From Halomicronema hongdechloris C2206 (GTDB taxonomy: Bacteria; Cyanobacteriota; Cyanobacteriia; Phormidesmidales; Phormidesmidaceae): a stretch of DNA of 32,000 nucleotides. Shown piece by piece: positions 1 through 28,880 of this stretch. The stretch is from assembly GCF_002075285.3 (NCBI RefSeq), contig NZ_CP021983.2:1380001-1412000 (forward strand). The letters are read 5' to 3'. The notes under the pieces were generated by a model. It ran no database searches. It saw only the letters and a list, made by a program, of their open reading frames with translations, and was not told where the DNA came from. The first letter of the stretch is position 1. The number at the start of each line of letters is the position of its first letter. A program made the translations under genes and the position numbers.

Positions 1-414
1 CTGGGTGCGGTCTTCGGCCATATCGAGCCGCACCAGAATGGCATTGTGTAGCGACTGTCGCAAGCGATCTTCTACCTCTGTCCATACGGCAGCAATCAGC
101 GTTTTTTCGTTGCCGTCCTTACGGGTGGGTTGCGGCTGCGTTTCTGGCAATCCATAAAAGTAGGCGCTTGAGGCTGCCAGCACCTCCTGCAATACCAGTT
201 TTAAGGTTTCTGCATCCATCCCCTGATGAATCACCACCCGGTTGTTATCACCCAAGATGTTGTCACTTCCCGTGACAATCTTTGCGCCAGTTGCATCGCG
301 GGCGATCGCCACCGCTCCCTGACCAGACGCACTGACCTCCGCCAGTAGCGCCTGAAGGTTTTCCTGAGGGAGCTCCTTCAGTGCCGCTTTCAGGTTTTCC
401 AGGCTATCTGACAT
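1..414 (-). CDS. STAND-class NTPase (NB-ARC/NACHT-like), first 138 codons only; the gene continues past the left edge
   Basis: This ORF is absent from the ORF track because it runs off the window. The ATG is at 414..412, 8 nt after the caspase stop codon, and I checked every in-frame triplet down to nt 1 and found no stop. Translation: MSDSLENLKAALKELPQENLQALLAEVSASGQGAVAIARDATGAKIVTGSDNILGDNNRVVIHQGMDAETLKLVLQEVL...KTLIAAVWTEVEDRLRQSLHNAILVRLDMAEDRTQ. The W.EV..RL.QSLHNA.L..L stretch resembles the conserved segment just upstream of the P-loop in cyanobacterial NB-ARC/NACHT repeat proteins. The P-loop itself lies outside the window. Confidence 0.6.
   Translation of the reverse strand, partial: MSDSLENLKAALKELPQENLQALLAEVSASGQGAVAIARDATGAKIVTGSDNILGDNNRVVIHQGMDAETLKLVLQEVLAASSAYFYGLPETQPQPTRKDGNEKTLIAAVWTEVEDRLRQSLHNAILVRLDMAEDRTQ
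302..309. repeat. HIP1 (GCGATCGC) highly iterated palindrome; one representative copy of at least 26 in the window
   Basis: Other copies read directly include 1873..1880, 2991..2998, 5490..5497, 5659..5666, 6558..6565, 7558..7565, 8135..8142 and 29685..29692. Fewer than one copy of an 8-bp palindrome is expected by chance in 32 kb. Confidence 0.9.
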
Positions 415-422
415 CAAACCAC

Positions 423-1469
423 TTACTCCTTGTCAGCTTGATCAGCACCAAAAGTGTCACCAATGTGCAAACCCTGGATATTGTCTCCCATGCTGATGTT
501 GTACTTACCTTTTTGATTCACAGTCTGCACTCGGTTATTGTTGCCAACGATGTTGCCCTGTCCAGTAACAATCGTTGCCCCCTGCGCGTTCTGAACCGCA
601 ACTGCGCCATCTCCTGAAGCTGCGATCGTGGTTTGAATCATTTGGCCGTTCAATTCACCAGGCTGTGACTCAATCCGAGGCTTGGATGCTAACTCAGGCG
701 GCAGGCCCTTCGGCTGCAGATCGCCTCCGGCATAGTACGCCAGCACAAAGTTATCGGCCTTCTCAATGTCCAGCACAGGGTGTTGTTTATCGCTGGTCAA
801 TGTCGGCACAATGCGGCTGGCATACATCGCTAAATCCGTCGCCCGAATGTAGCCATCTTGCTGGGTGGCTCCTTCCCCACATAATCCCTTCATCAGGGCA
901 TAGGTAAAGGCACTGTAGGGTTCTCCGGCATAGGACAACTCATCTGGCCGTGAGGAGCCAATCATGATGCGTCCGCCTCCTTTGGCAAACATCCTTTGCG
1001 CTTCCGGCGGCAGCGGAGCTTTGGTCGCTGCAAAGGCAGAGACATCACTTAATCCGCCAGCATGGCAGCAATCCAGCATCACCAGCAGTTTCTGCGCCGG
1101 AATCTCGCGCAGGTAATCCACAAACTCACTGCCGCTAATGGCGGTCTCATCCAAAGCTTCAGTGTTGTAGCCGTAGGGCATTAAAAAATAAGACTTAAAC
1201 GGCTTTTGCAGTTGGTGGCCATGTCCTGAGAAATAAATCAGCACCGTCGAATCGTCGTCGGTTGAATTCGCTAAGGTCTCCAAAGTTTGCAAAATCTGGC
1301 TGCGGGTTGCCTTTTCCCCCGTAAGGAAATGCACCTGGCTTTCTGGATAGGCACAGCGCTCGGGGTCTTGCAGAACCTTCGCCAGACCTTTAGCATCGGT
1401 GGCGGTAGTCGGCAAATCGCCACCGACTCCAATCACGCAAGCATGCCCTTGTTCAAAAAGGTGACTCAT
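423..1469 (-). CDS. Orthocaspase / peptidase C14 caspase-like protease with a C-terminal Gly/Asn-rich tail
   Basis: 348 aa with an ATG start confirmed at 1469. The catalytic dyad contexts are VLIYFSGHGH (His) and LLVMLDCCHAGG (Cys), typical of the caspase/metacaspase p20 fold. The last 65 aa (nt 426..620) read ASGDGAVAVQNAQGATIVTGQGNIVGNNNRVQTVNQKGKYNISMGDNIQGLHIGDTFGADQADKE and are not part of the protease fold. Confidence 0.85.
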   Translation of the reverse strand: MSHLFEQGHACVIGVGGDLPTTATDAKGLAKVLQDPERCAYPESQVHFLTGEKATRSQILQTLETLANSTDDDSTVLIYFSGHGHQLQKPFKSYFLMPYGYNTEALDETAISGSEFVDYLREIPAQKLLVMLDCCHAGGLSDVSAFAATKAPLPPEAQRMFAKGGGRIMIGSSRPDELSYAGEPYSAFTYALMKGLCGEGATQQDGYIRATDLAMYASRIVPTLTSDKQHPVLDIEKADNFVLAYYAGGDLQPKGLPPELASKPRIESQPGELNGQMIQTTIAASGDGAVAVQNAQGATIVTGQGNIVGNNNRVQTVNQKGKYNISMGDNIQGLHIGDTFGADQADKE

Positions 1470-1652: not shown

Positions 1653-3185
1653 ATGAAACTCCATCCCACTCCCTGGCTGAGCCTGACACTCTCCCTGCTG
1701 GGCTGCCTCCCGGCCCAACCCAGTTTGGCCCAAACAACTGTTATCGTTACCCCTGAAGCCCTGACGGCAACCGGAATGCGCGGGGAAGCTGAACCGGCAA
1801 TCCGAACTTTGGCGATTCGAGCAACTGAGCCCGTAACCGATTTGCAAATCCACACTCTGGATTTGTACAGTCGCGATCGCGATCGAGTTTTCCCCCAAGC
1901 CCTGATTACCGTTCCCACGACCATCAGCTCAGTTGAGGTAGGTACCCTGACCACTTTGCCAGTTGCGTTTAATCTGCAGGCTGCTCCCAGTGGTGAATTT
2001 CAAGGATCGTTACTGTTAAGCTACGGCGGCGACCAGGTAACCGTTCCAATCACGGTTCGCGTGAAAGATGCCTGGTACTTGCCATTGGCACTATTGATTT
2101 TGGGCGTGATTCTCGGCACCACTGTTTCTAGCTACAGCCGTTGGGGAAAAACAACCGATGAGTTGACGGTCGGCATTGAAACGCTACGCACCCTAGTTCA
2201 AAAGGATTCAGAGATCCCTCCTTCATTTGCCTCTGGCATTGCAGTGTATCTGGCCGATGCCCACTTAGCCCGCGATGTCAAACAACTGGAAAAATCTCGG
2301 CAGTCCCTTAATGCCGCTGGTGAGATGTGGGGCAAATGGTTTCGGGAACGTCCAGCGTGGCTGAGTGCTTTACAGGCAGGCAAGGAATTACAGTCTCAGC
2401 TTGCCGAACAACTCACAGCGGTAAGCCAAGCGCCCTATCTGCAAACGATTCAGTCTAATTTGCAGACGGTGTTAGACAATGTTGCTAACTTTGACAATGC
2501 CGCAGCGTTAGGGCAAACCATCAACCGTTTTTCACAGCAATCGACCCAATATCTGAGAGTTCTCCAGCAATATCGCCAGTTTCAGCAAACCCTGGAAGAA
2601 CTTAATCCCGATGCCTTACCACCCTCCGATCAAGAAACCCTACAGGATATGATTTCTCGGGCTGATGCCTGGAAAGAAATCCTCGTGACCCTGCGACCTT
2701 CTGACTCCGGCGATGATCCCCAACTACAAACCATTGGTTTAGCCATAGCCGAGGCTAAACCGGTTCTAAATACTTTGAAACAGAAAGCAGAGGATTCTGT
2801 TCCTGTGGATGGCTTGCGAGAATTTAAGCCAGGGAAAGGCAAAGCAGCCATAGAAACCAGTCCCCCCTCAGAAGTAGCAATGCCTCAAACAACAGTAATG
2901 GAATCTCCTGTCCCTGCCTTAGACGATACCTTCGTATTCAACGGCATTGCTACCCTGATCAAAAATCCCAAACAACGTCTCAAGCTGTTTGCGATCGCGG
3001 GCTATCTCACCACCATCGGCTTTTTGGCTGGAACCGGCTTCAACCAGCTTTATCTGGAGAACCCGACGTTCGGTTCAAGTGGACTGCGGGATTATTTTGC
3101 CCTCCTAGCTTGGGGCTTTGGCGCAGAAGCGACTCGCAGTGCGGTTACCAATGCCCTGCGACGAACCGATGGTGCGAGAGACTGA
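1653..3185 (+). CDS. Hypothetical secreted, membrane-anchored protein (signal peptide, beta-rich ectodomain, TM, long helical region, C-terminal TM pair)
   Basis: 510 aa with ATG at 1653. The N-terminus MKLHPTPWLSLTLSLLGCLPAQPSLAQT looks like a signal peptide. A TM segment WYLPLALLILGVILGTTVSSY follows a roughly 120-aa beta-rich region. C-terminal hydrophobic segments are LFAIAGYLTTIGFLAGTGF and YFALLAWGFGA. I recognise no catalytic motif. The gene is divergent from the caspase gene across a 183-bp spacer. Confidence 0.6.
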   Translation: MKLHPTPWLSLTLSLLGCLPAQPSLAQTTVIVTPEALTATGMRGEAEPAIRTLAIRATEPVTDLQIHTLDLYSRDRDRVFPQALITVPTTISSVEVGTLTTLPVAFNLQAAPSGEFQGSLLLSYGGDQVTVPITVRVKDAWYLPLALLILGVILGTTVSSYSRWGKTTDELTVGIETLRTLVQKDSEIPPSFASGIAVYLADAHLARDVKQLEKSRQSLNAAGEMWGKWFRERPAWLSALQAGKELQSQLAEQLTAVSQAPYLQTIQSNLQTVLDNVANFDNAAALGQTINRFSQQSTQYLRVLQQYRQFQQTLEELNPDALPPSDQETLQDMISRADAWKEILVTLRPSDSGDDPQLQTIGLAIAEAKPVLNTLKQKAEDSVPVDGLREFKPGKGKAAIETSPPSEVAMPQTTVMESPVPALDDTFVFNGIATLIKNPKQRLKLFAIAGYLTTIGFLAGTGFNQLYLENPTFGSSGLRDYFALLAWGFGAEATRSAVTNALRRTDGARD

Positions 3186-3504: not shown

Positions 3505-5781
3505 TCAAGTATTCAACGGCAAGATTAAGCCATCCTCAATTTCTTGGATCAGGTGAGTATTGGAGTGATCCCCACTATGCAAGCATTCAACCAAAATATA
3601 GTTTGCATTATAGTATTCAATTAGCTTCTCTTTCTCAGCGTCAGAGAAGCCCCAGTCATAACCAAAATCGCGATACTTTACCATTAAATTTCTTAGACTT
3701 ATAATCCACTCCTCGCCGTGCTTTTGCCACCAAACGTTCATTTTTTCGGCTTCACAAGGTCCCCAAAGGCGCGTTTTCAGCCACCAGTCCGGCAATGCAT
3801 CGATGAGTTTCTGGATTTCATCGCCGATTTCCTTACTTTTCGAAAGATATGAAAGCTCATTTGGAATTATTTGTTCAAGAACGATGGGAACTGCAAATCT
3901 TAATTGGGGCGACAGAGCAGTCTTGAGATTTCTATCAACTGCAAATTCGCAAATCAGAAGCTCATCTTCTTCTGGATTTTCACCAGGAAGATGATCAAAG
4001 TTCAGATGAATTCCTAACGCATAAGGAAGCTCTGTAAAACTGTCTGAATCATCGAAAGCCAAAATCAATGCTAAAGCCCGCAAAGATGACGGTTGATAAG
4101 AGTATTTAAAGGTATTAGCTTTTCTGCTTACCCAACTCAAAAAACACTGAAACTTTTCGTCCTCAAGATAAAGATCAATCTCGTGTTTCGTTGTACGAAA
4201 TAAAGCATCTAGATCTTGAGTATTGTCTATGACGAGTAAGAATACCTCTTTCCAGTGTTCTTTATAGAGTTGTCGTGCTAAATCCTTCCAATTGTTAGAG
4301 GTATAGAATGGTCTGGAAACTAAGTACTCTTGAAAAGTTAAGTGGGAAAACGACCAGATTTCATGAGCTTGCTCAACTAAGATTCCATGCTGCTCTGAAA
4401 TACTTTCTAGTACTGCTCCACTTTCCTCGGTCGAAATCTGAAGATGCTCTGCGATGTAACTACAGGCTTCTGCTTTGTCAAATAATACAAAATTTTCTGT
4501 TTGCTCAAACTTGCGAACTGCTAAGTAGCTTAGTAATTGCTTTCGTTCCTCCAGTGTTAGTTGCCGATAGATTTCACTCTTTGTCTCTCGATTGATTCCT
4601 CGTCGGTCATCCCATTGTCCTAGCAGTAAATCCAACCCTTCCCGATACAGATCAGACCGTTTTTCTGGTAAGCACTGAGAGTCTTCAAAAATCCAACACG
4701 TCAAACTCAAGAGCACTGGTGTTACCGCAAGTTCAGCGGTTTGCGGATGTTCACCAAGCTTTTCCATGAAGTGCTCTTTTAGCGCTTCACCTTCTTCCGG
4801 TGTCTCCACTATTGCCGTAAACCAGTTCAAAGCGAAGCTTTCTACCTGCTCTGGCTTAAAGTCTGCTACCTCTATGGGGATGAACTGTTCTGGAATGTAT
4901 TTCGTCGTTTGAGTACGACAAGTCAGCACAAAGCGATTTTTGTCGTATTGTTTGGCAAACCTTCGCAGTTCATCCTGTACTTTTGGCTGTAAAACGCTGG
5001 AGACTTCATCTAGACCGTCCAACAAAACCATAACTTTTCCTTGCCTTAGAAGTTGCTTGGTTTGCTCTTCTTCGGCTAATTCAAATTCCTCATGGATATG
5101 CCGAAACAGGCTAAATTCAGCTTCATCAACATCCCGTAGCTCAAGCAAATAGGGGATGTAGTTTTCTAGAAAATCACCTTTGGCACAGCCTACTGCTAAG
5201 TGCCTCAAAAATGTGCTTTTCCCGGAACCCGGCTTCCCTAAGACCATCAACCGAGGATATTCTTCGCTTTCGGCGATTTGTAACCCCTGTAACCGCTCTC
5301 CTCTTTTTGCCAGACCCAATCGGTCAAACTGCTTTCGGACATTCTGCCCTTTAAGTAATTCTGGAATATTGGCTCGATAATCCTGTACTTCCAGAACATA
5401 AACATCTACATAAAGCTGATCGACATCAACCTGGCGTCTATTCAGGAGCTGAATCTTACCGAAATTTCTGAGGCCTTTCTCTGATGCTCGCGATCGCACC
5501 TGCTCAATAATTGAGTCAATGGGTGCTGGCGGAGGACGAAGATATTGACGAATGATTTCCGCATCGGCTCCCTCGAAGATGATGTTGCCATCACCGATGA
5601 TGTTGTGATCGCCAGTAATCAGCACTGCATTATCCGCGTTCCCCCCCATGGCCAAAGCGCGATCGCCGGTAACCAGCGTGGCCTGGCCGGATTGAATTGC
5701 CTCTACTAACTGCTGTTGCTGTTCCGGAGTTAAGGATGTGCCCACAACACGCTGAATGATGGATTTGAGGTCTTGAGGCAT
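3505..5781 (-). CDS. NACHT-family STAND NTPase with an N-terminal Gly/Asn-rich adaptor-like motif
   Basis: The ORF-track start at 5793 is a TTG. The first ATG is at 5781 (MPQDLKSIIQRV...). Walker A is LGKPGSGKSTFL, Walker B is VMVLLDGLDEV, followed by FVLTCRT. The pre-P-loop segment QLLNRRQVDVDQLYVDVYVLE is typical of cyanobacterial NACHT proteins. N-terminal aa 31-71 (nt 5569..5691) read SGQATLVTGDRALAMGGNADNAVLITGDHNIIGDGNIIFEG. The C-terminal roughly 300 aa show no WD40 or TPR repeats that I can see. Confidence 0.8.
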   Translation of the reverse strand: MPQDLKSIIQRVVGTSLTPEQQQQLVEAIQSGQATLVTGDRALAMGGNADNAVLITGDHNIIGDGNIIFEGADAEIIRQYLRPPPAPIDSIIEQVRSRASEKGLRNFGKIQLLNRRQVDVDQLYVDVYVLEVQDYRANIPELLKGQNVRKQFDRLGLAKRGERLQGLQIAESEEYPRLMVLGKPGSGKSTFLRHLAVGCAKGDFLENYIPYLLELRDVDEAEFSLFRHIHEEFELAEEEQTKQLLRQGKVMVLLDGLDEVSSVLQPKVQDELRRFAKQYDKNRFVLTCRTQTTKYIPEQFIPIEVADFKPEQVESFALNWFTAIVETPEEGEALKEHFMEKLGEHPQTAELAVTPVLLSLTCWIFEDSQCLPEKRSDLYREGLDLLLGQWDDRRGINRETKSEIYRQLTLEERKQLLSYLAVRKFEQTENFVLFDKAEACSYIAEHLQISTEESGAVLESISEQHGILVEQAHEIWSFSHLTFQEYLVSRPFYTSNNWKDLARQLYKEHWKEVFLLVIDNTQDLDALFRTTKHEIDLYLEDEKFQCFLSWVSRKANTFKYSYQPSSLRALALILAFDDSDSFTELPYALGIHLNFDHLPGENPEEDELLICEFAVDRNLKTALSPQLRFAVPIVLEQIIPNELSYLSKSKEIGDEIQKLIDALPDWWLKTRLWGPCEAEKMNVWWQKHGEEWIISLRNLMVKYRDFGYDWGFSDAEKEKLIEYYNANYILVECLHSGDHSNTHLIQEIEDGLILPLNT

Positions 5782-5907
5782 TTCTTGAGGCAAACGTCGC
5801 TATGTCGTTCTTCACAATCATACCTACTCTACTCCTCCCTCTGTGGAACTGGATCAGCGACAATTCAAGAGCTTTAATAACTTCAGTGATACATTTCCTC
5901 GCTGCAG

Positions 5908-7356
5908 CTAACGTTCTAAAGCCTCACAGCCGCTCGGGCGGATTGGACTCAGAGAATGTGTTTGCTGTAGCCGTTTTGCCTCAACCATAAATCGCTGTTT
6001 ATCTAAGTGCGTCACCTTTGATAGCTCAACCACAAATCCCCTTGCTTGAAATATCAAACCACGTGAAGCTGCTCTCACGATCAGATGCTGTCCTTCAGAC
6101 TCAAAAGTGTATGTATGGCCATGTAGCAAACGCTTTCGCGGCGACCAGTCATCCCGATCTGTGTGGTGTTTAGCTGTTTGAATAGTTGGCGATTGTCTCA
6201 AAATGTAATGCAGGTCCCTCACCACATTCTGGAGTTCTCCTCCCTTCAGATAACCCCCAGCCGATAGCTCTGCTTGATTAGTCTGTCCGATTGAAGAGTA
6301 GCTTGGATATTTGAGATGACTTAAGGCCTGCACCCGTTTCCAGGCACTCTCATCCCCACCTGCAAAAACCGCTGCTGGAATACACTTCTCGGGGTCAACA
6401 ATACTTTGAATAATCCGCTCTACCCGTTCGACATCAATTCCTAAAGCTGCCCCAGCTTCCTTCGCCAACGCCTCAGCATCTCCATTAATCGGCACCCCAT
6501 GCTCAGTAGCCCAATTCTCCCAGCCATAGAACTCGCGTAGAGCATAGGTCAGGGAGTGCGATCGCGACTCCAAGGGGCTCTCCCCCTGCAGCACCGCCTG
6601 AGCCTTGGCCGTCGCCAGGTCTTCCAGCCGTAATACTCCTGGTTGGGCAGGGTGTACCTGAATTGGGGGCCGAAGGTGAGTTGGTTCACTCTGACCTCGT
6701 CTACGGCTAACCGGATACACCCCAATCGCCTCCAACCGTTCCACCCACACGGGTGATACCCGCTGCAAGTTGACATAAGACTGTCCACTGGGGCCAATCG
6801 TTGGTGCGAGTACTGTAAAGCGTCCTTGGCCCAGGGCTTCCCCCATGTGCTGACCGCCCAACCCATCCAGCGAGAAGTTGGTGAAGCGTTTTTCTGGAAC
6901 TCGCACAGCAAACCGCCAGCCACCACTATGGGTCCGTTCTGTAAAAGTTTGCTGCAGTCGAGGATGCTGGCTGAGCCAGTGGCTGATGCGGGCATTACAG
7001 GCCTCTTGGGAGCCAAACTGTTTTACGTCCACATCGAGCCAAACCAGGTTCTGCCATCCTCCCAAAGTACCGATGCCATTGGCAGGATGAGTAAACCAGG
7101 TCCGGAACTCTTGCTCAGTCGGAAGCTGGTGCTGATATTGAGTGTGGCGGATCAGATGAGGAATGCCATTGGCATCCAGAAAGCTAGGATTTTTGCCCGT
7201 AAAAGCAGGGATTAAGGCTCCATTTGAGTCGCGCTTCAACGTGCCGTCTCGCTCCCTTGCCGGATACTGCTGAGGATGCTGAGCAGGCGCTATGGGTAAA
7301 GGGGGCAATCCCTGAGCCTTGAGCCAGTCAAAGGTTTTTCGTAAGTCTGGTTTCAT
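5908..7356 (-). CDS. Bifunctional DNA primase/polymerase (archaeo-eukaryotic primase superfamily, PrimPol N-terminal domain) with a C-terminal extension
   Basis: 482 aa with ATG confirmed at 7356. Motifs are FTGKNPS, NLVWLDVDVK (acidic metal-binding motif) and ERTHSGGWRFAVRV (the sGG.H-type motif of plasmid and phage PrimPol domains). The C-terminal 57-aa module (nt 5959..6129) is shared with two neighbouring proteins; see findings. Confidence 0.7.
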   Translation of the reverse strand: MKPDLRKTFDWLKAQGLPPLPIAPAQHPQQYPARERDGTLKRDSNGALIPAFTGKNPSFLDANGIPHLIRHTQYQHQLPTEQEFRTWFTHPANGIGTLGGWQNLVWLDVDVKQFGSQEACNARISHWLSQHPRLQQTFTERTHSGGWRFAVRVPEKRFTNFSLDGLGGQHMGEALGQGRFTVLAPTIGPSGQSYVNLQRVSPVWVERLEAIGVYPVSRRRGQSEPTHLRPPIQVHPAQPGVLRLEDLATAKAQAVLQGESPLESRSHSLTYALREFYGWENWATEHGVPINGDAEALAKEAGAALGIDVERVERIIQSIVDPEKCIPAAVFAGGDESAWKRVQALSHLKYPSYSSIGQTNQAELSAGGYLKGGELQNVVRDLHYILRQSPTIQTAKHHTDRDDWSPRKRLLHGHTYTFESEGQHLIVRAASRGLIFQARGFVVELSKVTHLDKQRFMVEAKRLQQTHSLSPIRPSGCEALER

Positions 7357-7386
7357 GGTCTTGACCCAATTGAAGAGCCGCCACGG

Positions 7387-10300
7387 TCATCGTTCTCTGC
7401 CTGCACAGGTTGCGGTCTGCGTGCGCGTAGTTTCCAAGTGCTGGGCAAACCGTTGAAAACGGTGGCAATCGTCGGCGGTAACCACTGTGCGTTGAATCTT
7501 GCCTGCCGCCATTTCCAGAATGGTTTGGGGCTGGGGGGCAACCTTGCGAACGATGAGGCGATCGCCCGTTTGCTGCAGTTCATAGGTCTTGCCGCGAAAT
7601 AGGGTGTCTGGTCCCTGGCCTTGACCGATGGCGGACAGAATATGCTGTGACACTTGGGCAACGAACTCGCCCCGCTGCTGGAAAGCTTGATATAGAGCCA
7701 TGTCTTGGGCCATGGCCTGCTGGTCTGCTGCCGCCACGGTAAAACCATGACCATTCGCATCTCTGGCAGAGATACCTAGCTGCTTAATTTTTTCCAGGTG
7801 CAGTGGGTCATGCCCTAAATCACGAGCCGCCCGATACCAGTCCCGAAGGGCTTCTAGGGTGGCAGGTGTTCCTTGCGACCGAGAGGGGAGAGCTTCAGGA
7901 ACAGCCGTCTCGAGCGTTTGAGGTGGCTCTTGGGGCTGCACCTGCCGCCTATTTGGAGGAGCCGCACTGAACTGATTGGTATCAAAGAGGCTCTGGACTT
8001 GGAACTCAGGTTCTTGCGTTTCTACCACTGTCACTGACTGAACGGGTTCTGATGTGGGGACCAGGGGCGAGGTTGCTTCGACAACTGCGGAGCTTTCTAG
8101 CTGCGTATGAACTGTGGTTTCTCCCTGCCAGTCCGCGATCGCCACCTCACTCACCTGCCTCAGTGGCTCCAGATACTTCTCCAGACTTTTCACTGGGAAA
8201 CCTGATGCTGGAATTCTCTCAGCGCCGGGAGCGGTGCATGTCTGGCTGGTGAGAATTAGATCGAGGGTTTGGGCCAGCTGTTTGGCATCATCAAAGAAGG
8301 TCTCGTAGAAGCGGCGATCGCTCGTTTGAACCAGCACCATTGCCTCGGAATGCTGGTCTTTGACGGTCAGATATTGCTGAACATCTGCGGGCAAAGCCTG
8401 CCGATCACTCTGCGTAGGGCTACCCGGAGATTGGATTTCCGGTTTTGCTGCCACCTTCTCTTCTTGGGACTCTTGCTGTTGCGCCTTGGCTGCTTCGGCA
8501 AAGCCCTGCTTCAAGATGTTCTTGGAAAAGATCTGGGCAAACTGGCGATCGGGAATACGAGATTCGCCGCCATAGGGCGTTTGCACGGCGGTCTCCTTAA
8601 ACTGCAGCTGCCCTTCTGGCAGCACCGTGAAGACCATCTCAGCGTCAATGTACATGTCGCCGTTCTGGGTCAGGTAGTGGGTTAGATACAACTCATCCCC
8701 CTGACGCTCCACAACGAGTGGGATGAAGGGCTCATTCTCAATCCGCAAGTGGAACTCATCGGTGTTCATTACCGCCTGATCAATGCCCGCCTCCCGCAGA
8801 AATCGGAGAATTCGCTTTTCCAACTGCCCCATCTGGGGATGATTGGAGCCAGTGGAGGCGCTTACCGTCGGAGCCTCAACCGTAGGTTTTGGTCCTGGCG
8901 TTTCAGTTGTAGGACTGGAGACTGGAGGTTGGATAACGTGGAGGGCAGGAGTTACTGAAGCTTTGGGTGCTGCTGCTTCCACCTTTTCCAGGCTTGGTAG
9001 GGTCACACCAAGGAACTGTCGAGCGATATCTTTGGATTCAAAAGCGGCCAGGGTGTAGTTGCGCTGATGCATTAGCACCGCTAGGGTCTGCTCCAACCGT
9101 TCGGGCGGAATAACGACTTCCATGCGATCGCCCACGGAATAGAAGTCCGATCCGGCAACAGCAATCAACCCCTCATCTAGAAAATATTTGCCTCCCGACT
9201 CCTTTGATTTGGGGGTTTGCAGCACAAAGCCTTCACCGTTGAACTGCGTTTTGAGAATCAACAGTTCATCCAGCGTTTTCACAATGCCTCGGCGGCTGGT
9301 CAGTTCCGTGATGAAGGTCATCACCTGTTGCGGAGTGCTGAAGGCCACCGGCTCTTTGGTCAGCTCTTCCTGAATGTCAAAGCCCTTGGGCATCATCAGC
9401 CCCTGGCGTACCTGCCCCTGGTAGTCGGTGTAATTCAGCAACTTGCCATTCGGGTACTTCTCAAACGCCTTGATCAAGTTGCCGGTGAAGATTTGCCGAT
9501 TGACGCGCCCGGCTTCCTGCTGCTTATCGAACAGGCCATAAACATCATTGCCGAACCAATCTTCGGTTTGAACCATGGCCTCCAATGACCCACCCCGTCC
9601 GGTATTGAACTTAGACAGGGGCACCGTCAACTGACGGACTGAATCGGCCACCAGAATCCGCAGCTTCCAGCGGTTCGGGGCAGCGGGACTGCCGGAGCGC
9701 TTCTTGGCATCAATCCCAGCGACCACCCCGTAGAAGATGGATTTGCTGGCGGGCGTGACCAACCGTAATGGCATCCCCGGCGGAAACTCCTCTAGGACGC
9801 TGGTGACATGAGCCCGTTGCTGATGGATGCGATCATTGAGCTTGTCAATGGCTTTGTCGTCCTGTTTTCCAGCGATCGCCCCCTGCCGATACTGTTCCGT
9901 GGCTGTCTCTAACTCCGCAATGGTTGCCTGGGTTTGCTGGCGGGACTGGTTTTCTAAGTCATCCCGATCGTGCTCCTCAACTGACCTCACACCGTTCAGG
10001 CCCACCTGTTCCCGTACCGCATTGATCACCTGCAACTGGGTTAGGGGCTTGGTCTGGCTCTTTGCGTCCACCATCTCCAGATAAACGGGTCCGGTAAACT
10101 CACTGCGGGTGTTGCCTTCATCGGCCACCACCTCCATTCGCGCCAGAGGACGGGCATCAAGGTCGAGTTGGTCTGCCTCCAAAATGCTCTCGCCCATGGC
10201 TCTGGCTTGGTCCACCAGGTCTCGGTATTCCGACTCAATCAGGCTGTAGAGGGCTTCCTGCTCCTCAATCGGCAGCAGGGGAATTCGCCCGGTCACCTTC

Positions 10301-12480
10301 TTAATCAGGGCGATATCGGAGGCATCGTTTTCCGCTTGGGCGGAGGGGAAGTCCAACTTGGCATTGAGTTCTGGGTCATCTGCTAGCAGTTCGGTGATCA
10401 CCTGCTCCCCGTAGGAATTCATAAAGTCCACCACGTTGTTCAGAGAGATATCCGTCTCCCGTGCGGCAGTAGTGTTGGCGTTGAGGCTAGCCATCTTGCG
10501 ACAGAGAATCGCCCCCGGTCGCTTTTCGGCAGGCAGATCGCCCATCAATAAGGTGTAGCTGGGCAGAGCCACCTGTCCGGTGCGATGGACCCGTCCCAGC
10601 ATCTGCATGAACACGTTGATATCCCGTTCGGCCTGGGCCACAATCATGTGGCGCGGACGCTGGTCGGCGAACTTTTCAGAGGCGTGGAGTGAGATGCCGG
10701 TGGAGCCCGAGCAGTTCAGGAGAATGACATCGGCATCCCCGGCGTTGAACTTGGCCACCGCATCGATCTTGCCTTTAGCCGTGGTCTCTTGATCCGATCG
10801 CACCCGATAACTCATGGAACCATCAGCCGCATAGTCAATGCCAGCTTTACGTCCAGTGACTTCAGTGACGCGGAACCCCGCTCGCTCCAACTGCTGTTCG
10901 ATGTAGTCAATCGGGCTGATAGGAATGCCGCTGAAGTCTGCTTCCCGAATGCAGTCCAGCGCCCCTTCGTAAGCAAGGACTCCTTCGGCTCCCAGTTGCT
11001 CATCCGTTAGCCGCAAGCGATTGGCCTGTCCCCGGTAGTCCTTGGTGACGACATCCCGCGATCGCTCTAGATACCGTTCCAGTAAATCCGCGAAGGAGAG
11101 ATTCATCTCATCTCCCGGCTTCAAGTCCTGGGCATCGGCATAGGCCTGAATGAAACTGCCCATGGTGTTGGCCACGGTAATCACGGGCTTTTCACAGTTC
11201 TGGAGGGCCGCGATCGCGGCCTGCACGGTGGCATCGGCCTTTTGCGCCAACAAGCCTTGCTCAATGCAGTTGTGCATCAGCGACGTAAAGTTGGTACTCT
11301 TCGCTCCGACTTCCCCGATCGCCCCATCTTCCCCAATCGCCTTGGCTTCGGCCTTCAGTTCTTTGCTGATGGTTTTGACTGCTCGTTGTTTGGCTCGGTC
11401 AAAGTCTTTGATGGCCCGCATGGCAGCGGAGAAGTCGTCTGCGACATCGCGATCTACGGGAACCGTATTGGCCTGAAAGGAGATGCCGTCATAGGAGCGC
11501 TCTCGCCGCAGCATCTGCCCGGAAGCGACAAACTTGCTGGCCACAATCTGCTGTAAGGGGACACCGCCACGGGTGAGGATATTCTCCAGTGCAGTCATGC
11601 TGCTAACGCCCAGGCGCAGGTCAGTGCGGCGAGCGTAGAGATCCATCACGTCGGGACGTTTGGCGTAGGTCGCGGAGGAGTAAAAGACGCCGGAGGACTT
11701 GTCGATCAGCTCTCGGACGAAGTCGGCCCGGTCAGGGGGACCCGCTTCCTTCCATCCCCCTTTGCTGCCGCCCGCTTGATGGGCTTCATCCAGAATTAAA
11801 ATCGCCTGGGGAGCCAGCTTACGGAGAAAGTTCCGCCGCAACGGCTCCTTCTTCCCCACCGTCTGCAGCTGGCTATAGGTGGTGAAGACAGCGCTGTAAT
11901 GCCCCAGATTGCCCCGCTGCATTATGGCCTGCATTTCTTCTTTCTGCTTCGCCGCTCCTGCCGTCTTCAAGGCCGCCCCATTAGCCAGCGGAATTTCAGT
12001 GCTGCTATCGGTAATGAAGGGGGTAAATCGCCGCATCCCGATATCGCTGACATCGCGCATCATGTCGGCGTAGAGGGGCTTGTCTTTGGTGATGAAAATG
12101 GCGATTTTGCCTTGCTGCTGGGCATAGCGCATGATGCTGGCACAGATGCGCCCTTTGCCGATGCCGGTCTGGTCGCCCGTGATAAAGCCTGCTCCCTGTT
12201 CCAAGTTACCGATCGCCAGGGCGGCAGCATCCACCTGCTCAGCACTGAAATATTGGTGCAGCTCTTCAACGGAGCCGTAGCCTAAGCGAGTCGCTAGATA
12301 AGCATCAATAGCCCCATGCTGCTGCTCGAACTGGTCGAGAGCCTGTTGAGCCGCGCTGGCCATGTTGCAGGGAATCAGCGTTTGAGTGGAGAAACCCTGA
12401 CTTTTGGGCACATAGGGCACCTGGCGGGGCTGGACATCATAGGCGTCTGAAGGGGTATCAACGGAAAGCGGGGTATTCAT
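7387..12480 (-). CDS. Strawberry-notch / SNF2-type superfamily-2 helicase, a large multi-domain ('polyvalent') conjugative-element protein
   Basis: The track ORF (7387..13074) is trimmed to the ATG at 12480 (MNTPLSVDTPS...), which has GGAG 6 nt upstream and lies 21 nt after the stop of the upstream gene. The 198 codons further upstream are Arg/Pro/Ser-rich and overlap a better ORF in another frame. Motif I is GDQTGIGKGR (nt 12151..12177). Motif II is ILILDEAHQAGG (DEAH). The helicase C-terminal region reads LLNCSGSTGISLHASEKFADQRPRHMIVAQAERDINVFMQMLGRVHRTGQ. The protein is 1697 aa and carries about 700 aa of extra C-terminal modules. Confidence 0.85.
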   Translation of the reverse strand: MNTPLSVDTPSDAYDVQPRQVPYVPKSQGFSTQTLIPCNMASAAQQALDQFEQQHGAIDAYLATRLGYGSVEELHQYFSAEQVDAAALAIGNLEQGAGFITGDQTGIGKGRICASIMRYAQQQGKIAIFITKDKPLYADMMRDVSDIGMRRFTPFITDSSTEIPLANGAALKTAGAAKQKEEMQAIMQRGNLGHYSAVFTTYSQLQTVGKKEPLRRNFLRKLAPQAILILDEAHQAGGSKGGWKEAGPPDRADFVRELIDKSSGVFYSSATYAKRPDVMDLYARRTDLRLGVSSMTALENILTRGGVPLQQIVASKFVASGQMLRRERSYDGISFQANTVPVDRDVADDFSAAMRAIKDFDRAKQRAVKTISKELKAEAKAIGEDGAIGEVGAKSTNFTSLMHNCIEQGLLAQKADATVQAAIAALQNCEKPVITVANTMGSFIQAYADAQDLKPGDEMNLSFADLLERYLERSRDVVTKDYRGQANRLRLTDEQLGAEGVLAYEGALDCIREADFSGIPISPIDYIEQQLERAGFRVTEVTGRKAGIDYAADGSMSYRVRSDQETTAKGKIDAVAKFNAGDADVILLNCSGSTGISLHASEKFADQRPRHMIVAQAERDINVFMQMLGRVHRTGQVALPSYTLLMGDLPAEKRPGAILCRKMASLNANTTAARETDISLNNVVDFMNSYGEQVITELLADDPELNAKLDFPSAQAENDASDIALIKKVTGRIPLLPIEEQEALYSLIESEYRDLVDQARAMGESILEADQLDLDARPLARMEVVADEGNTRSEFTGPVYLEMVDAKSQTKPLTQLQVINAVREQVGLNGVRSVEEHDRDDLENQSRQQTQATIAELETATEQYRQGAIAGKQDDKAIDKLNDRIHQQRAHVTSVLEEFPPGMPLRLVTPASKSIFYGVVAGIDAKKRSGSPAAPNRWKLRILVADSVRQLTVPLSKFNTGRGGSLEAMVQTEDWFGNDVYGLFDKQQEAGRVNRQIFTGNLIKAFEKYPNGKLLNYTDYQGQVRQGLMMPKGFDIQEELTKEPVAFSTPQQVMTFITELTSRRGIVKTLDELLILKTQFNGEGFVLQTPKSKESGGKYFLDEGLIAVAGSDFYSVGDRMEVVIPPERLEQTLAVLMHQRNYTLAAFESKDIARQFLGVTLPSLEKVEAAAPKASVTPALHVIQPPVSSPTTETPGPKPTVEAPTVSASTGSNHPQMGQLEKRILRFLREAGIDQAVMNTDEFHLRIENEPFIPLVVERQGDELYLTHYLTQNGDMYIDAEMVFTVLPEGQLQFKETAVQTPYGGESRIPDRQFAQIFSKNILKQGFAEAAKAQQQESQEEKVAAKPEIQSPGSPTQSDRQALPADVQQYLTVKDQHSEAMVLVQTSDRRFYETFFDDAKQLAQTLDLILTSQTCTAPGAERIPASGFPVKSLEKYLEPLRQVSEVAIADWQGETTVHTQLESSAVVEATSPLVPTSEPVQSVTVVETQEPEFQVQSLFDTNQFSAAPPNRRQVQPQEPPQTLETAVPEALPSRSQGTPATLEALRDWYRAARDLGHDPLHLEKIKQLGISARDANGHGFTVAAADQQAMAQDMALYQAFQQRGEFVAQVSQHILSAIGQGQGPDTLFRGKTYELQQTGDRLIVRKVAPQPQTILEMAAGKIQRTVVTADDCHRFQRFAQHLETTRTQTATCAGRER
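8125..8382 (-). other. MutS domain-I-like (mismatch-binding N-terminal domain) segment embedded in the helicase C-terminal region
   Basis: The segment is VQQYLTVKDQHSEAMVLVQTSDRRFYETFFDDAKQLAQTLDLILTSQTCTAPGAERIPASGFPVKSLEKYLEPLRQVSEVAIADWQ. It aligns by eye with the E. coli-type MutS N-terminus as I remember it: MQQYL.LKAQHPE.LLFYRMGDFYELF.DDAK.AS.LLDI.LT.RG...GE.IPMAG.P.HA...YLAKL...GE.VAICEQ. Confidence 0.6.
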
Positions 12481-12500
12481 AGGAGCCTCTGGGTGAAGCG

Positions 12501-13010
12501 TTACAGAGTCAGGTTGCCGAGCCAGTCCTCCAGAGTGATGTCGTCGTGAAGGTCCAGAGCGTCGGGGTAACTGGGGTGATCCGGTGCCATCGGGACGGCT
12601 GGAAAGGTCAGGCCGTAGTGCCGCATCCGGTCTCGAAATCGCCAGTTGCTGAGGATCAAGGTCTCGCTCCACTGCTGCCGCCACTGGCTCAGGGCGAACT
12701 CCGGATCGGCGTCCGACTCCAATAGGGGGATTGCCTGGGCGGCGTCCAGCTGACTGAGATGGGTTGCGAGTAGCTGCTGAGTTTCGATTTGAGACGTGGC
12801 TGCGGCCCAGTCCTGAATCAGCTGGTCTAAGCGCGTCTGCATCAGGGCCAAGTAGATGGGTTCCTGCAGGCTCTCCAGATCCGGCGGCACTTTGACGATA
12901 AATAACACGCCCATCGCTTCCGGCTGCCAAAGGTAGGGAAAGGTGGGATATTGGGCGGTCATGAAGGGATAAATCCAGCGAGATTGGGTGTAGGTGTCGG
13001 AGGGATTCAT
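12501..13010 (-). CDS. Hypothetical acidic protein between the methyltransferase and the helicase
   Basis: 169 aa from the ATG at 13010 (MNPSDTYTQSRWIYPF...). AAGGAG lies 10 nt upstream. The sequence is rich in aromatic residues and looks globular, unlike the overlapping frame. It is in the same reading frame as the methyltransferase, separated from it only by the TAA at 13110..13112 and 33 codons. Confidence 0.55.
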   Translation of the reverse strand: MNPSDTYTQSRWIYPFMTAQYPTFPYLWQPEAMGVLFIVKVPPDLESLQEPIYLALMQTRLDQLIQDWAAATSQIETQQLLATHLSQLDAAQAIPLLESDADPEFALSQWRQQWSETLILSNWRFRDRMRHYGLTFPAVPMAPDHPSYPDALDLHDDITLEDWLGNLTL

Positions 13011-13109
13011 GGGGCAATTGCTCCTTAAGTTCGGCAAACGTTTGATAGATGGTAGGTACCTGGGCAGCGGGCAACGGGCGATCAGCAGGTCCTTTTCCTT
13101 CAATGACAA

Positions 13110-13970
13110 TTAGATCAATGGAAAGCCTGCGCCTTGCTTGCGGTAGAGGTCACCTGAAATCGACAGATGCTGCGTGACCCGATACTGCTGATACAGGAGG
13201 TAGTAGAAGGCGCGACTTTCGCGGGTGTTATAGCGCTCCGAGCGGAGTTCCTCCTCATGGCCTCGCTTCCCGCCGAGAATCAGTACAGCTCGTCCTTCGG
13301 GTTTCATGACCGATAGCGCCTTTAGAGCAATCACCTGGTCAATTTGGGTCGTCCAGGTGTCGGCGATGGGGAAGCGGCGGGTGTGAAGCTGCTCGTCTTT
13401 GACGGAGCCAAAGGGGGGATTGCAGATGATGACATCATGTTGCTGGTGGGGTTGGTACTCACTGGCATCAAACTGAGTGACGGAGTAGCCTTGTGCCCGC
13501 AAATCAGCCGCGCGATCGGCGTTGAGTTCATTGACGGTAGCTTTAGCCGGATCCGTTCCCAGCAGTAATGCACCATGTCCGGCAGTGGGTTCGTAGACGG
13601 TCTTGTCTGGTGTGACTCCCGCTAAGGATGAGGCCAGAAACGCGATAGGGATGGGGGTGCTGTAGGCCTGCTGCAGAACGCTGGTGGAGGAGCGGACATT
13701 GAGAGCCGGTTGGCGATCGTGCAAGTCCACTAGCCGATCATAGGTGTCGTGAGTCGTAGTTGAGGTTTGGAGGATTCCCTGAGCGGTTCTCACCACCCCA
13801 GCTTCCACGGCTTCATCCACCTGCTTGGCCAGCGCCGTACCCGGAAGCACCGGTTCACCTAACACCGCAGATGCCTGCTGACGAGCCTGGGTGATCGTGG
13901 CAAAGCTCCCCCCCGCCCCCAAGTGACGGGCAAAGAATTCCACCAGTTCCGGCTGATGTGCCATCCCCAT
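13110..13970 (-). CDS. N6-adenine DNA methyltransferase (gamma-class motif order), of the type usually fused to strawberry-notch helicases on conjugative elements
   Basis: 286 aa with ATG at 13970. The AdoMet-binding motif-I-like segment is VYEPTAGHGALLLG, and the catalytic motif IV is VIICNPPFG. The protein ends at ...RKQGAGFPLI. Confidence 0.75.
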   Translation of the reverse strand: MGMAHQPELVEFFARHLGAGGSFATITQARQQASAVLGEPVLPGTALAKQVDEAVEAGVVRTAQGILQTSTTTHDTYDRLVDLHDRQPALNVRSSTSVLQQAYSTPIPIAFLASSLAGVTPDKTVYEPTAGHGALLLGTDPAKATVNELNADRAADLRAQGYSVTQFDASEYQPHQQHDVIICNPPFGSVKDEQLHTRRFPIADTWTTQIDQVIALKALSVMKPEGRAVLILGGKRGHEEELRSERYNTRESRAFYYLLYQQYRVTQHLSISGDLYRKQGAGFPLI

Positions 13971-13973
13971 CGC

Positions 13974-15506
13974 CTACTCACCCGCCGCGAGTTCCAATGG
14001 CGGATGGCGTTGCCTCGGATTGAGCGGGGTCAAGGTTGCGGGAGCGGGCAACTTCAAGTCCTGGCTGAGTTCTCGATCAATGAACCGGAAGTAGGTGATG
14101 TCTTGGGGCGTCAATTCCGACTTGATTTTGCCGTTATCGATGCTGAGAATGGTGCCCCGCTCAGCCGCCTGAAGCTTGAGGCTATTCGGCGTCTCTTCGA
14201 TGCGGTACTGGCTGCCGCCCTGAAAGATGCGCTTACCCTGGACATTAGGCCGACTGCCGATGACATCCAACAGTTTGCGAGCGGTTTTGGCCAGGGCTAG
14301 GGCTGTCAAATCACGGGTCAGTCCCCGATCGGCTGCCGGAGCGAGGTTGCCGAGCTGTCGCGATCGCATCGGCGGTTCCGAAGAAATTCCGTCCAGCCCT
14401 TGAATGTGAATCTGCTGACGGGCTTTCAAGAAATCTGCTTCCTGAGACGCAACCATCTCGTTTTTGAGGATGTCCAGCCCCCAACGGGTCTTGCGGAACA
14501 TCATCAGTTCCGTGCCTTCGCGATCTGTGATGGTGACCATGCGACCCTTGGCGTTGAGGCTGTATTTCTCAGCGACATACAGGCCTCTGCCAGGACTGTA
14601 TGTGGTACCAAATTTCTGTAGTAAGTCCACAGCGGTAGAGGCGACCTGACGACTGCGAATATTAGCGGCAATGGCCACGACCTTGTCGGTCAACTGTTGG
14701 GACGATCTCCGCATGACGCGGGTCGTCTGCTGCATCCATTGCCGGGTAGCCGTTTCGACAACCTGCTGATTCTGGCGATCTAAGACCTCCAGGATGGAGA
14801 CGACATTAGGAGAGTGCGACTTCAATGGTTGAGCCGCCAATGGCTGCTGATTGGGGATGGCAGGTTCAGGTGTCGTTATGGACGAAGGCACTACCGATTC
14901 TGGTAACGGAGAAGGCGTTTCGTGCTCTTTGGTTTTGGCCCGTTCACGGACTTCTGGAGAAACGTCTGCTGTTTTGATCGAACTTTGATCAACCTCTAGA
15001 GCTGGATCTTCCTGTTGATTGGCGGCACTGCTAGGGTGCAGTTGGTTCACCTCTACAGCCCCTTTGCTCAGGCGATAGACCAACTCATCACCAGCTTTGA
15101 TATTGATCGTCCCTTTAACATCGGAGGTAATTGCATCCTCCGTTTGCGCAGACACGTCTAACGCAGCTTGCAACAGCTTCAGCTTGTTGAGACTGAGCTT
15201 GTCGATGGGGTCTTTGTCGGCATAGCCTTCCCGGTAGACAATTTCGCGACCCAGCTTGATTTCAATGGGTTCCGGAGTGTCTTGTGGCAGCTCGTCTAAT
15301 CCGTCCCATTGTTCGTCCGTCTGGGCCTCCGCATTCTCCCGCTTTCGGGCAGCCTGGAGGCGATCGCGCAGCATCTGGATAAAGGCTTGCACCGCCTCTG
15401 CTGTAGATTGAGCGGTCACAGCAGCAATTTCGCTAGAGGCGAGGGTCGTGTGAGCATAGTCTTGCTCGATTTGTTTGGCTTCGCCTGGATTTACAACGGC
15501 TTGCAT
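13974..15506 (-). CDS. Hypothetical protein (510 aa) with a low-complexity acidic/Pro-rich centre and two copies of a module shared with the PrimPol and helicase C-termini
   Basis: ATG confirmed at 15506. I see no HUH, HxH, Walker or other catalytic motif. The clearer C-terminal module is at nt 14061..14228; a weaker upstream copy reads LYVAEKYSLNAKGRMVTITDREGTELMMFRK... Confidence 0.6.
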   Translation of the reverse strand: MQAVVNPGEAKQIEQDYAHTTLASSEIAAVTAQSTAEAVQAFIQMLRDRLQAARKRENAEAQTDEQWDGLDELPQDTPEPIEIKLGREIVYREGYADKDPIDKLSLNKLKLLQAALDVSAQTEDAITSDVKGTINIKAGDELVYRLSKGAVEVNQLHPSSAANQQEDPALEVDQSSIKTADVSPEVRERAKTKEHETPSPLPESVVPSSITTPEPAIPNQQPLAAQPLKSHSPNVVSILEVLDRQNQQVVETATRQWMQQTTRVMRRSSQQLTDKVVAIAANIRSRQVASTAVDLLQKFGTTYSPGRGLYVAEKYSLNAKGRMVTITDREGTELMMFRKTRWGLDILKNEMVASQEADFLKARQQIHIQGLDGISSEPPMRSRQLGNLAPAADRGLTRDLTALALAKTARKLLDVIGSRPNVQGKRIFQGGSQYRIEETPNSLKLQAAERGTILSIDNGKIKSELTPQDITYFRFIDRELSQDLKLPAPATLTPLNPRQRHPPLELAAGE

Positions 15507-15874
15507 GGTCTTTCCTCCAAAGCTTTCAGGGTTTCGAGATTGAGTTGCGGGACGGCGGGGAGACGGTTAATCACTTCCCGCCCTTGTACGGAGAGATAGG
15601 CGGTTTCACCATCCACCAACCACTCGACCAGTTCCGGCTGATAGTCAGCGGCAACAGGCGGGCATTGATAGGTCATCTGGCCGTCCTGCCACTCCACGAC
15701 AGTGACGTCATCAAACAGGACACTGATTTCGCGCGGCACATAGTCCTCGGCCAATCGGGGCTGATCGAATACCGGCAGTAACTCAGCCGCGATTTCGGGA
15801 TGTTCCAGCAATGCCGCCAGCGTTTCAGCGGGGAGCTTGTCTCCCAAGGCTTGGACCAGCATGGGTTCTGTCAC
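15491..15874 (-). CDS. Small, highly acidic hypothetical protein
   Basis: 127 aa. The start is a GTG at 15874, preceded by AGGAGG with a 6-nt spacer; the next ATG is at 15862. By hand count there are about 23 Asp+Glu against 8 Lys+Arg. The gene overlaps the next one by 16 nt. Confidence 0.55.
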   Translation of the reverse strand: MTEPMLVQALGDKLPAETLAALLEHPEIAAELLPVFDQPRLAEDYVPREISVLFDDVTVVEWQDGQMTYQCPPVAADYQPELVEWLVDGETAYLSVQGREVINRLPAVPQLNLETLKALEERPCKPL

Positions 15875-15884
15875 GGGGCACCTC

Positions 15885-18142: not shown

Positions 18143-18153
18143 ATCACTGGCCC

Positions 18154-19863: not shown

Positions 19864-19884
19864 GGCCTTAACCAGAATGAAGGA

Positions 19885-22843: not shown

Positions 22844-22866
22844 GGGAGGTTTCCTTACAAGTACTA

Positions 22867-23994: not shown

Positions 23995-24007
23995 GGCGAA
24001 CTGACGC

Positions 24008-27823: not shown

Positions 27824-27882
27824 AAGCAGCTCAGGCGAGGCTGGAAGAACAGTGGAAGCTGCACCCTCAATCTGATGCGCAA

Positions 27883-28464: not shown

Positions 28465-28565
28465 TTCAGTCTCCTTGAATCAGGTCAGCCTGTCTTGACT
28501 CGCGAACCTTAAAAGATGCCTTGAGCAATTCAATTTCCGGGAAGATTTGATCACTATAGCAATGA

Positions 28566-28597
28566 TTTTCAGGAACCGGGATCAAACATCCTGAAAA
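28566..28597. repeat. Inverted repeat TTTTCAGGA-(14 nt)-TCCTGAAAA
   Basis: The 9-bp arms at 28566..28574 and 28589..28597 are perfectly complementary, read directly. The repeat lies about 100 nt upstream of the pilin-like gene start. Confidence 0.7.
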
Positions 28598-28781: not shown

Positions 28782-28806
28782 TAGATGATTAGCAATGTCG
28801 TGATTA

Positions 28807-28818: not shown

Positions 28819-28880
28819 CCAGCCGCTTAACAGAAATTTCCTTCAATCGCCAAAAGAATTAAATTTTGGATGATCTCTTT

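Follow-up and report, generated by a model that had tools for sequence, protein, structure and literature searches.

The 32,000-nucleotide stretch of the Halomicronema hongdechloris C2206 genome analyzed here (contig NZ_CP021983.2, positions 1,380,001 to 1,412,000; hereafter the window) encodes a caspase-family protease whose C-terminal tail shares a short core motif with the N-terminus of the protein encoded immediately downstream. The downstream protein begins with effector-associated domain 10 (EAD10) and is predicted to be an NTPase resembling the nucleotide-binding oligomerization domain-like receptors (NLRs). We assign a probability of roughly 0.6 to the reading that the locus is an EAD10-coupled NLR/caspase module, in which the caspase is recruited through the shared core and activated by proximity. 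The original prediction for this DNA had described an orthocaspase beside a STAND (signal transduction ATPase with numerous domains) NTPase, the two being linked by matching terminal motifs. Its framing is largely correct, and the underlying observation is real and significant.

The core in the caspase tail reads ASGDGAVAVQNAQGATIVTGQGNIVGNNNRV (residues 284–314, nt 528..620, reverse strand), and that in the NTPase N-terminus reads ASGQGAVAIARDATGAKIVTGSDNILGDNNRV (residues 29–60, nt 235..330, reverse strand). All coordinates and sequences first given for the pair were reproduced, including the 8-nt gap and the common strand. Aligned with one gap, the two cores agree at 21 of 31 residues. A BLASTP comparison of the 96-residue tail with the 138-residue N-terminal fragment of the NTPase returned 26 identities over 53 positions (E 7e-12 with composition adjustment). 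Local alignment of the whole tail scored 107, compared with 28 ± 5 and a maximum of 62 for 5000 composition-preserving shuffles of the tail, while the cores alone scored 95 compared with 23 ± 5. The similarity thus lies about 15 standard deviations above the shuffles for the whole tail and the core alike, and the shared pattern noticed in the original prediction is substantiated. At the DNA level, the cores are identical at 60 of 93 positions (64.5%), and the same codon is used at just 8 of the 21 identical residues. Synonymous divergence between the two is saturated. On these grounds, the motif is judged to be ancient and maintained by protein-level selection, with no recent duplication or gene conversion, as the moderate DNA similarity had led the original prediction to propose. 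Both segments are short and rich in Gly and Asn, features that could invite an explanation by chance or low complexity, or by a functionless remnant of local duplication or gene conversion in the recent past. Such an origin is barely credible in view of the shuffles and the codon usage, and also because the position and sequence of the motif are kept across dozens of loci whose caspases are 50–90% identical.

The tails of the caspase homologs follow a common plan, comprising a linker (PKGLPxEL..IESxPGE), module A (consensus ASGDRAVAIGGNAxGATIITGDGNVVGxxN), module B (consensus VxQRGKYNINxGxAxxLxIGD), and an acidic end. Short versions of the caspase in Nostoc carry module B only, and some other versions carry module A only. 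Profile hidden Markov models (HMMs) of the two modules, modA and modB, were searched against all open reading frames (ORFs) of 164 related loci and the window (5380 ORFs), yielding 153 confident hits. These comprise 83 hits located after the protease domain of flagged caspases (44 A, 39 B) and 64 that fall within residues 1–130 of other proteins (35 A, 29 B), and four of the other six belong to two additional caspase ORFs not caught by the flag. The hits are thus nearly confined to caspase tails and to the N-termini of other proteins. This distribution agrees with the earlier notion of a maintained motif, now seen as a position-specific module at the effector C-terminus and at the N-terminus of the adjoining gene product.

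The N-terminus of the downstream protein (residues 3–78) aligns with positions 2–77 of the 77-position Pfam EAD10 model (PF19954), scoring 48.3 bits compared with a gathering threshold of 24.1. In non-caspase proteins, A and B cores occur between the same conserved helices, with "L..IL.RI..G..TE.DI..L" before and "GADAE.I...L" after the core. Since both cores share these flanks, A and B are, as judged from sequence, two subtypes of the core of a single domain, EAD10. Of the two, the B type agrees better with the Pfam model, at 73 bits for a protein of locus L003 versus 43–48 bits for A types. The caspase tail itself reaches 15.9 bits (E 0.013), below the threshold, in two stretches that correspond to profile positions of about 36–61; module B is the top-scoring one, at positions 36–61. 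This low score is explained by the caspase carrying the cores without the helices, and several homologous caspases nevertheless have a precomputed PF19954 hit. The asymmetry is a clear feature of the pair, with bare cores on the caspase and a helix-flanked core on the NTPase, where helices are predicted at residues 2–13, 17–30, and 68–86. The motif on the NTPase side is thus more than a bare N-terminal peptide. In an AlphaFold2 (AF2) model, the NTPase EAD10 reached an overall predicted local distance difference test (pLDDT) score of 57, with helices of moderate confidence and a core (residues 37–61) below 50. Residues 275–348 of the caspase likewise scored below 50 in the AF2 monomer, leaving the tail cores unstructured. 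Comparison of the EAD10 domain with Protein Data Bank sequences returned nothing below E 0.3. The two tail modules had been described as pseudo-repeats facing a single copy on the NTPase, as in HET-s/NWD2. This description did not survive, because modules A and B show no significant similarity to each other (hhalign P 0.049, probability 1%) and each has its own class of partner N-termini.

The subtype of a caspase core predicts the subtype found in its neighbors. For the neighbor tests, caspases at least 90% identical were collapsed into 127 clusters, whose sequences are not phylogenetically independent. An A-type N-terminus was present in the locus for 15 of 33 caspases with an A core and for 5 of 94 without one (Fisher P 6e-7), and a B-type N-terminus for 12 of 27 caspases with a B core and for none of 100 without one (P 8e-10). 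Caspases carrying only an A core had six A-type and no B-type neighbors, while those carrying only a B core had no A-type and two B-type neighbors. The expected enrichment of motif-bearing caspases beside motif-bearing neighbors was thus observed beyond chance. Cognate pairs were also more similar than permuted pairs for both A (P 0.025, with the window pair ranking first of 19) and B (P 0.001), with a modest effect size. Some pairs share idiosyncratic insertions, such as "..GKYSTY.E.." in L017 and "..STR[DE]SS..NIGD" in L094. In A-type pairs, the partner lies 4–13 nt downstream on the same strand in 13 of 19 cases, and of 35 dereplicated loci with a tail-bearing caspase, 16 have a gene within 150 nt downstream whose product carries an A or B core at the N-terminus. 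B-type N-termini occur in L001 and L003; in orthologous loci, B-type NTPases lie further downstream, and no partner for module B was found inside the window. The neighbor tests, together with the shuffles, the codons, and the hit positions, refute a chance, low-complexity, or recent-duplication origin of the motif. The neighbor tests also address the objection that the motif could be a ubiquitous linker.

Directly observed are the anatomy of the locus and the co-occurrence of its parts, and every functional step of the EAD10-coupled module is modeled on the EAD principle and on death-fold platforms. In response to a trigger, for instance a phage or some other invader, the NACHT NTPase would oligomerize in an NTP-dependent manner, thereby clustering or uncovering its EAD10 cores. 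The bare A core of the caspase would then co-fold with the NTPase cores into a shared β structure, bringing several caspase domains together for proximity activation. The active caspase would cleave cellular targets, leading to growth arrest or death. Through its B core, the same caspase could be recruited by B-type EAD10 NTPases, which lie downstream in L001. Because the caspase possesses the core only, the contact is expected to proceed through the core rather than through symmetric packing of two complete EAD10 domains, and this asymmetry favors a β-strand-mediated co-fold.

Several points weigh against this reading. Within the window, the downstream ORF shows no NTPase domain. Of the 16 related loci with an adjoining motif-bearing gene, 11 have one that lacks a P-loop; because of this count, the caspase may be part of a many-to-many local network of EAD10 proteins and not of a dedicated sensor/effector pair. 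The enrichment is partly confounded by taxonomy, since the tail-less caspases derive mostly from Chloroflexota, and the excess of cognate over permuted similarity is modest for the A core. The AF2 alignments are shallow, at 31 and 34 sequences. Finally, EAD10 interaction, caspase activation, and a role in defense are purely computational predictions. The adjoining genes that lack a P-loop encode EAD10 combined with tetratricopeptide repeats (TPR), with a weak phycobilisome-protein-like (globin-like) domain, or with a domain of no assigned family. Among them, small EAD10 proteins lie just downstream of related caspases in L108 (1369-2523), L110 (2190-3176), and L107 (2514-3506), and their C-terminal halves weakly match the Pfam "Phycobilisome protein" family (globin-like; E 7e-6 to 6e-4). 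To find a putative defense adaptor fused with a light-harvesting-type fold is unexpected.

The frequency of these non-NTPase EAD10 genes would also suit a different explanation, in which the motif binds a common third party or marks both proteins as protease substrates or regulators. One candidate for such a third party is a 510-residue membrane protein encoded divergently from the caspase. It has a transmembrane (TM) helix at residues 137–162 and a highly conserved Gly-rich C-terminal segment (residues ~443–497), and, among dereplicated loci, its gene lies divergently next to the caspase gene in 15 of the 24 with a tail-bearing caspase versus 2 of the 65 with a tail-less one, with identities as low as 29%. 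Moreover, the nearest named type of the caspase is "EACC1-associated", and systems of that type pair a membrane protein with a caspase. We nevertheless consider this explanation improbable. Direct homotypic contact would be expected to leave matched subtypes and insertions peculiar to individual adjacent pairs, both of which are seen, and searches with the modA and modB HMMs found neither an A nor a B core in the membrane protein. The protein matched no family in Pfam or NCBIfam and gave no meaningful match in PADLOC, and its identification as EACC1 was rejected on the same grounds. Possibly, it is a third, constant component of the locus, analogous to EACC1 and distinct from it.

Module A also resembles a published amyloid motif family. 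The bacterial amyloid signaling sequence (BASS) pairs of the BASS6 type are given in Table S2 of Dyrka et al. 2020 (bioRxiv 10.1101/2020.01.06.895854), an example being ASGQGAVAVQHNSGIISTG / ASGDRAVAVGHNQGIVSTGDGAV, and a BASS6 profile was built from 23 sequences of that table. Alignment of the BASS6 and module A profiles with hhalign gave a probability of 96% (E 4.6e-9, score 34.3), while 100 column-shuffled controls scored 9.7 ± 2.9 with a maximum of 20.3, and none of them reached 34.3. A search of 3336 ORFs with the BASS6 HMM returned caspase module A sites as the top matches. The A core of EAD10 therefore matches BASS6, a correspondence that holds at the profile level only, and the window tail taken alone is weak against the BASS6 HMM (E 0.41 in the same 3336 ORFs). 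Module B was also compared with BASS4 and rejected, with 6 columns aligned at a probability of 4%. The earlier appeal to the EAD and BASS frameworks proved sound, as the NTPase side scores 48 bits against Pfam EAD10 and the shared core corresponds to BASS6 at the profile level. No link between EAD10 and BASS was found in the EAD and BASS papers searched.

This resemblance opens the prospect of strict prion-like amyloid signaling, as in HET-S/NWD2 or Bab/Agp, which we regard as a tentative alternative. In such a mechanism, itself rather doubtful, the oligomerized NTPase cores would form a cross-β nucleus that templates an open-ended polymer of caspase tails, and the fibril would activate the protease. 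Beyond the profile match, the motif is rich in G, N, V, A, and Q, and the caspase module A lacks P, K, and L, which is the bias described for BASS motifs. The caspase carries a bare core that is unstructured as a monomer, like prion-forming domains, CHAT metacaspases bearing BASS motifs have been reported, and BASS11 has been shown to act in amyloid signaling of a bacterial abortive-infection system. On the other hand, the experiments found in the literature concern BASS1 and BASS3, for which a Podospora prion assay was used, with none found on BASS6, and the match of the window tail itself is weak. Furthermore, the NTPase core lies between conserved helices, whereas the NLR-side BASS6 motifs listed in Table S2 start at residues 1–26, and A and B do not repeat a single motif. 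In its fullest form, which we offer as speculation, EAD10 would be a BASS6-type β-arch/amyloid core, held by helices on the sensor and bare on the effector, rather than a globular adaptor. The caspase with its two bare cores would then be a dual-input executioner templated by two classes of NLR-like sensors, with the membrane protein as a third component. If this were true, EAD10 and BASS6, two computational families that were defined independently, would become one, and the locus would provide the first amyloid-switched caspase in bacteria.

The effector of the EAD10-coupled module has a protease domain spanning approximately residues 1–250, followed by a conserved linker, modules A and B, and an acidic end. 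His83, Cys134, Cys135, and His136 are invariant among 31 homologs. The AF2 model has pLDDT values of 80–96 for residues 20–270, and its best Foldseek matches are the MALT1 paracaspase, metacaspases, and caspase-9 (probability 1.00). The protein is thus predicted to adopt a caspase-hemoglobinase fold with an intact His-Cys dyad, and the initial orthocaspase call holds on the strength of the Pfam match (Table 1), the invariant dyad, and the Foldseek result. A near-invariant PKGLP stretch (Lys254, Gly255, Leu256, and Pro257; region of residues 251–255, nt 705..719, reverse strand) lies in the linker between the protease and the tail. Since orthocaspases cleave after basic residues, PKGLP is a candidate autoprocessing site; it may alternatively serve in docking. 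The homolog search retrieved 559 caspases, mostly cyanobacterial. Against NCBIfam NF047832 ("caspase, EACC1-associated type"), the window caspase scored 97 bits (E 1e-27), below the 140-bit cutoff, which suggests a lineage that is sister to the EACC1 caspases of actinobacteria. PADLOC returned a generic "caspase" match and weak NTPase matches only. In homologs of about 560 residues (P0012, P0068, P0079-P0081, and P0084), the A+B tail is placed internally, with the caspase domain before it and a C-terminal TIR domain after it, indicating that the cores can also link two effector domains. Members of the same caspase family (47–58% identical) are frequent in Anaerolineae and are found in Methanothrix archaea as well; the caspases of loci L025-L084 (Chloroflexota, Methanothrix, and Accumulibacter) have different C-terminal tails without A and B cores.

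The downstream ORF leaves the window after 138 codons. These 138 residues are identical at 133 positions (96%) to the N-terminus of a 683-residue protein in the metagenomic locus L001, which combines EAD10 with NACHT (34 bits versus a cutoff of 26.7) and a Walker A/P-loop at residue 180, and whose gene follows a 90%-identical caspase by 8 nt. The label "STAND NTPase" is retained because this close ortholog is an EAD10-NACHT protein; for the window itself it is an extrapolation, with the NTPase domain lying outside. A homolog search with the 138-residue fragment found four proteins. Its residues 1–95 (nt 130..414, reverse strand) are 91% identical to the corresponding stretch of NACHT-NCH2 proteins (816–852 residues) whose remainder is unrelated. 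The window encodes a second NLR-like NTPase of 762 residues, which matches NACHT (E 7e-19), NCH2 (E 4e-24), and, with its N-terminus alone, EAD10 (E 3e-6) in Pfam, and which carries a subtype A core at residues 42–72 (nt 5578..5670; modA E 3e-11). It is 100% identical to a Halomicronema hongdechloris C2206 protein (P0125), which places the source among the cyanobacteria of the Nodosilineales. The N-terminus of this NACHT protein (nt 5500..5793, reverse strand) hardly differs from the N-terminus of NB-ARC-TPR proteins found in L001 and L005. The comparison of the window with L001, L005, and P0191 indicates that EAD10 modules are swapped between NTPase bodies.

Regarding the arrangement of the pair, the caspase gene ends with a TAA stop (425..423), and the next ATG lies at 414..412, both on the reverse strand. 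An AAGGAG sequence precedes this ATG by 11 nt and overlaps the last caspase codons, and no terminator-like site was seen between the two genes. The overlap suggests that they form an operon with translational coupling. The caspase locus borders a conjugative element, as first noted, since the rest of the window encodes a type IV secretion system (T4SS) coupling protein, TrbI, ParA, and other proteins, including an N6 methylase and an M23 peptidase. The features are listed in Table 1.

Table 1. Features of the window and their positions, numbered from its first nucleotide
Feature	Position (nt)	Strand	Support
EAD10-NACHT NTPase gene (predicted), 5' part (138 codons), cut by the window edge	1..414	-	Pfam EAD10 E 1e-12, aa 3-78
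NTPase EAD10 core, subtype A, aa 29-60	235..330	-	modA HMM E 7e-12
Intergenic spacer, 8 nt	415..422	-	
Peptidase_C14 caspase-family effector gene, 348 aa	423..1469	-	Pfam PF00656 E 5e-19
Tail module B, caspase aa 315-340, QTVNQKGKYNISMGDNIQGLHIGDTF, bare EAD10 core, subtype B	450..527	-	modB HMM E 4e-14
Tail module A, caspase aa 284-314, bare EAD10 core, subtype A, BASS6-like	528..620	-	modA HMM E 4e-15
Catalytic-dyad span: His83 (1221..1223, SGHG) and Cys135 (1065..1067, DCCHAGG)	1062..1223	-	
510-aa protein with signal peptide and one TM helix, divergent from the caspase	1653..3185	+	
Second NLR-like NTPase, 762 aa, EAD10 + NACHT + NCH2	3505..5793	-	
Conjugative-element gene set	5908..29855		
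PrimPol	5908..7356		
1895-aa SNF2/Strawberry-notch helicase with DUF6908 and MutS_I domain	7387..13074		
T4SS coupling protein	15885..17615		
TrbI	20607..22109		
ParA	28968..29855		

This architecture is already catalogued. The supplement of Kaur et al. 2021 (PMC8195603) includes "CASPASE+EAD10" and, for the NTPase side, "EAD10+NACHT" in the form "EAD10+NACHT+FGS", and it counts EAD10 at 27 N-terminal, 5 middle, and 3 C-terminal positions; EAD10 entries are present in this supplement and were not found in the supplementary text of Kaur et al. 2020 (PMC7159879). The Joint Genome Institute (JGI) names homologs "Caspase domain/Effector-associated domain 10". Dyrka et al. 2020 note BASS motifs on CHAT metacaspases and describe CHAT, TIR2, α/β-hydrolase, and cyclase as rarer exceptions to Bell-domain effectors. 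The caspase is therefore a less unusual effector than was originally suggested. Because the architecture is listed and a Pfam model exists, the locus is a further member of a catalogued, purely computational kind and adds little to the catalogue. What appears undescribed is the profile link between the EAD10 A core and BASS6, the A/B matching, the tandem bare cores of the caspase, and the divergent membrane protein, as well as, in the papers searched, the asymmetry between bare and helix-flanked cores. If the mechanism holds, the locus would be a bacterial counterpart of inflammasome/apoptosome logic, with an NLR-like NTPase switching on a caspase-fold protease in a defense island that borders a conjugative element in a multicellular filamentous cyanobacterium. 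With its caspase, EAD10-NACHT protein, second EAD10-NACHT protein, and membrane protein, the compact locus is a practical test case for whether EAD10 mediates homotypic recruitment and, given the BASS6 resemblance, whether the contact is amyloid-like.

Comparison with known systems places the locus closest to EAD coupling, the principle set out by Kaur, Burroughs, Iyer and Aravind (eLife 2020, PMC7159879; eLife 2021, PMC8195603). As in that scheme, one copy of a small, non-enzymatic, mixed α+β domain resides on the N-terminus of a STAND NTPase, here a predicted one, and another on the effector of an adjacent gene, adjacent copies are closer than non-adjacent ones, and the systems are found in multicellular bacteria. 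The caspase differs in having two different tandem cores without helices, hence its score below the Pfam threshold, and the A/B subtypes with separate partner sets are not described in the portions of the Kaur et al. text covered here. With the BASS pairs, whose motifs have about 25 residues, the locus shares the placement of one motif on the effector C-terminus and on the N-terminus of a NACHT/NB-ARC protein (here a predicted NACHT protein) encoded by adjacent co-linear genes; with BASS6 in particular, it shares a gap of at most 10 bp and the pattern ASG-x-[RG]-[AS]-V-A-[VI]...G...[IV]-x-TGD, as in ASGQGAVAVQHNSGIISTG. The BASS6 pairs of the published table are actinobacterial, with Bell-domain effectors and a motif close to the NLR N-terminus, whereas the effector here is a caspase and the core is about 10 residues longer and helix-flanked on the NTPase. 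No report of amyloid formation by BASS6 was found.

The resemblance to HET-S/NWD2 and its HET-s-related amyloid motif (HRAM) lies in the gene-pair logic and in two effector modules versus one on the NLR. The modules here are not pseudo-repeats (P 0.05), each has its own partner class, and the effector is a protease rather than a pore-forming HeLo domain. The EACC1-caspase System 4 of Kaur et al. 2020 corresponds to the nearest NCBIfam type and likewise places a conserved membrane protein beside a caspase with a variable C-terminus. The window caspase reaches 97 rather than 140 bits for that type, and the 5' gene of that system specifies EACC1 as a small single-TM domain, whereas the membrane protein here has 510 residues, is divergently encoded, and matches no family. 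Finally, the predicted mechanism parallels metazoan death-fold platforms, namely the apoptosome with caspase-9, ASC with caspase-1 through CARD filaments, and BCL10 with MALT1. All of them rely on a STAND NTPase or a filament to gather a caspase-fold protease by way of a common adaptor module, which leads to proximity activation. The adaptor of the cyanobacterial locus is not a six-helix death fold, and EAD10 in HHpred matches only itself.

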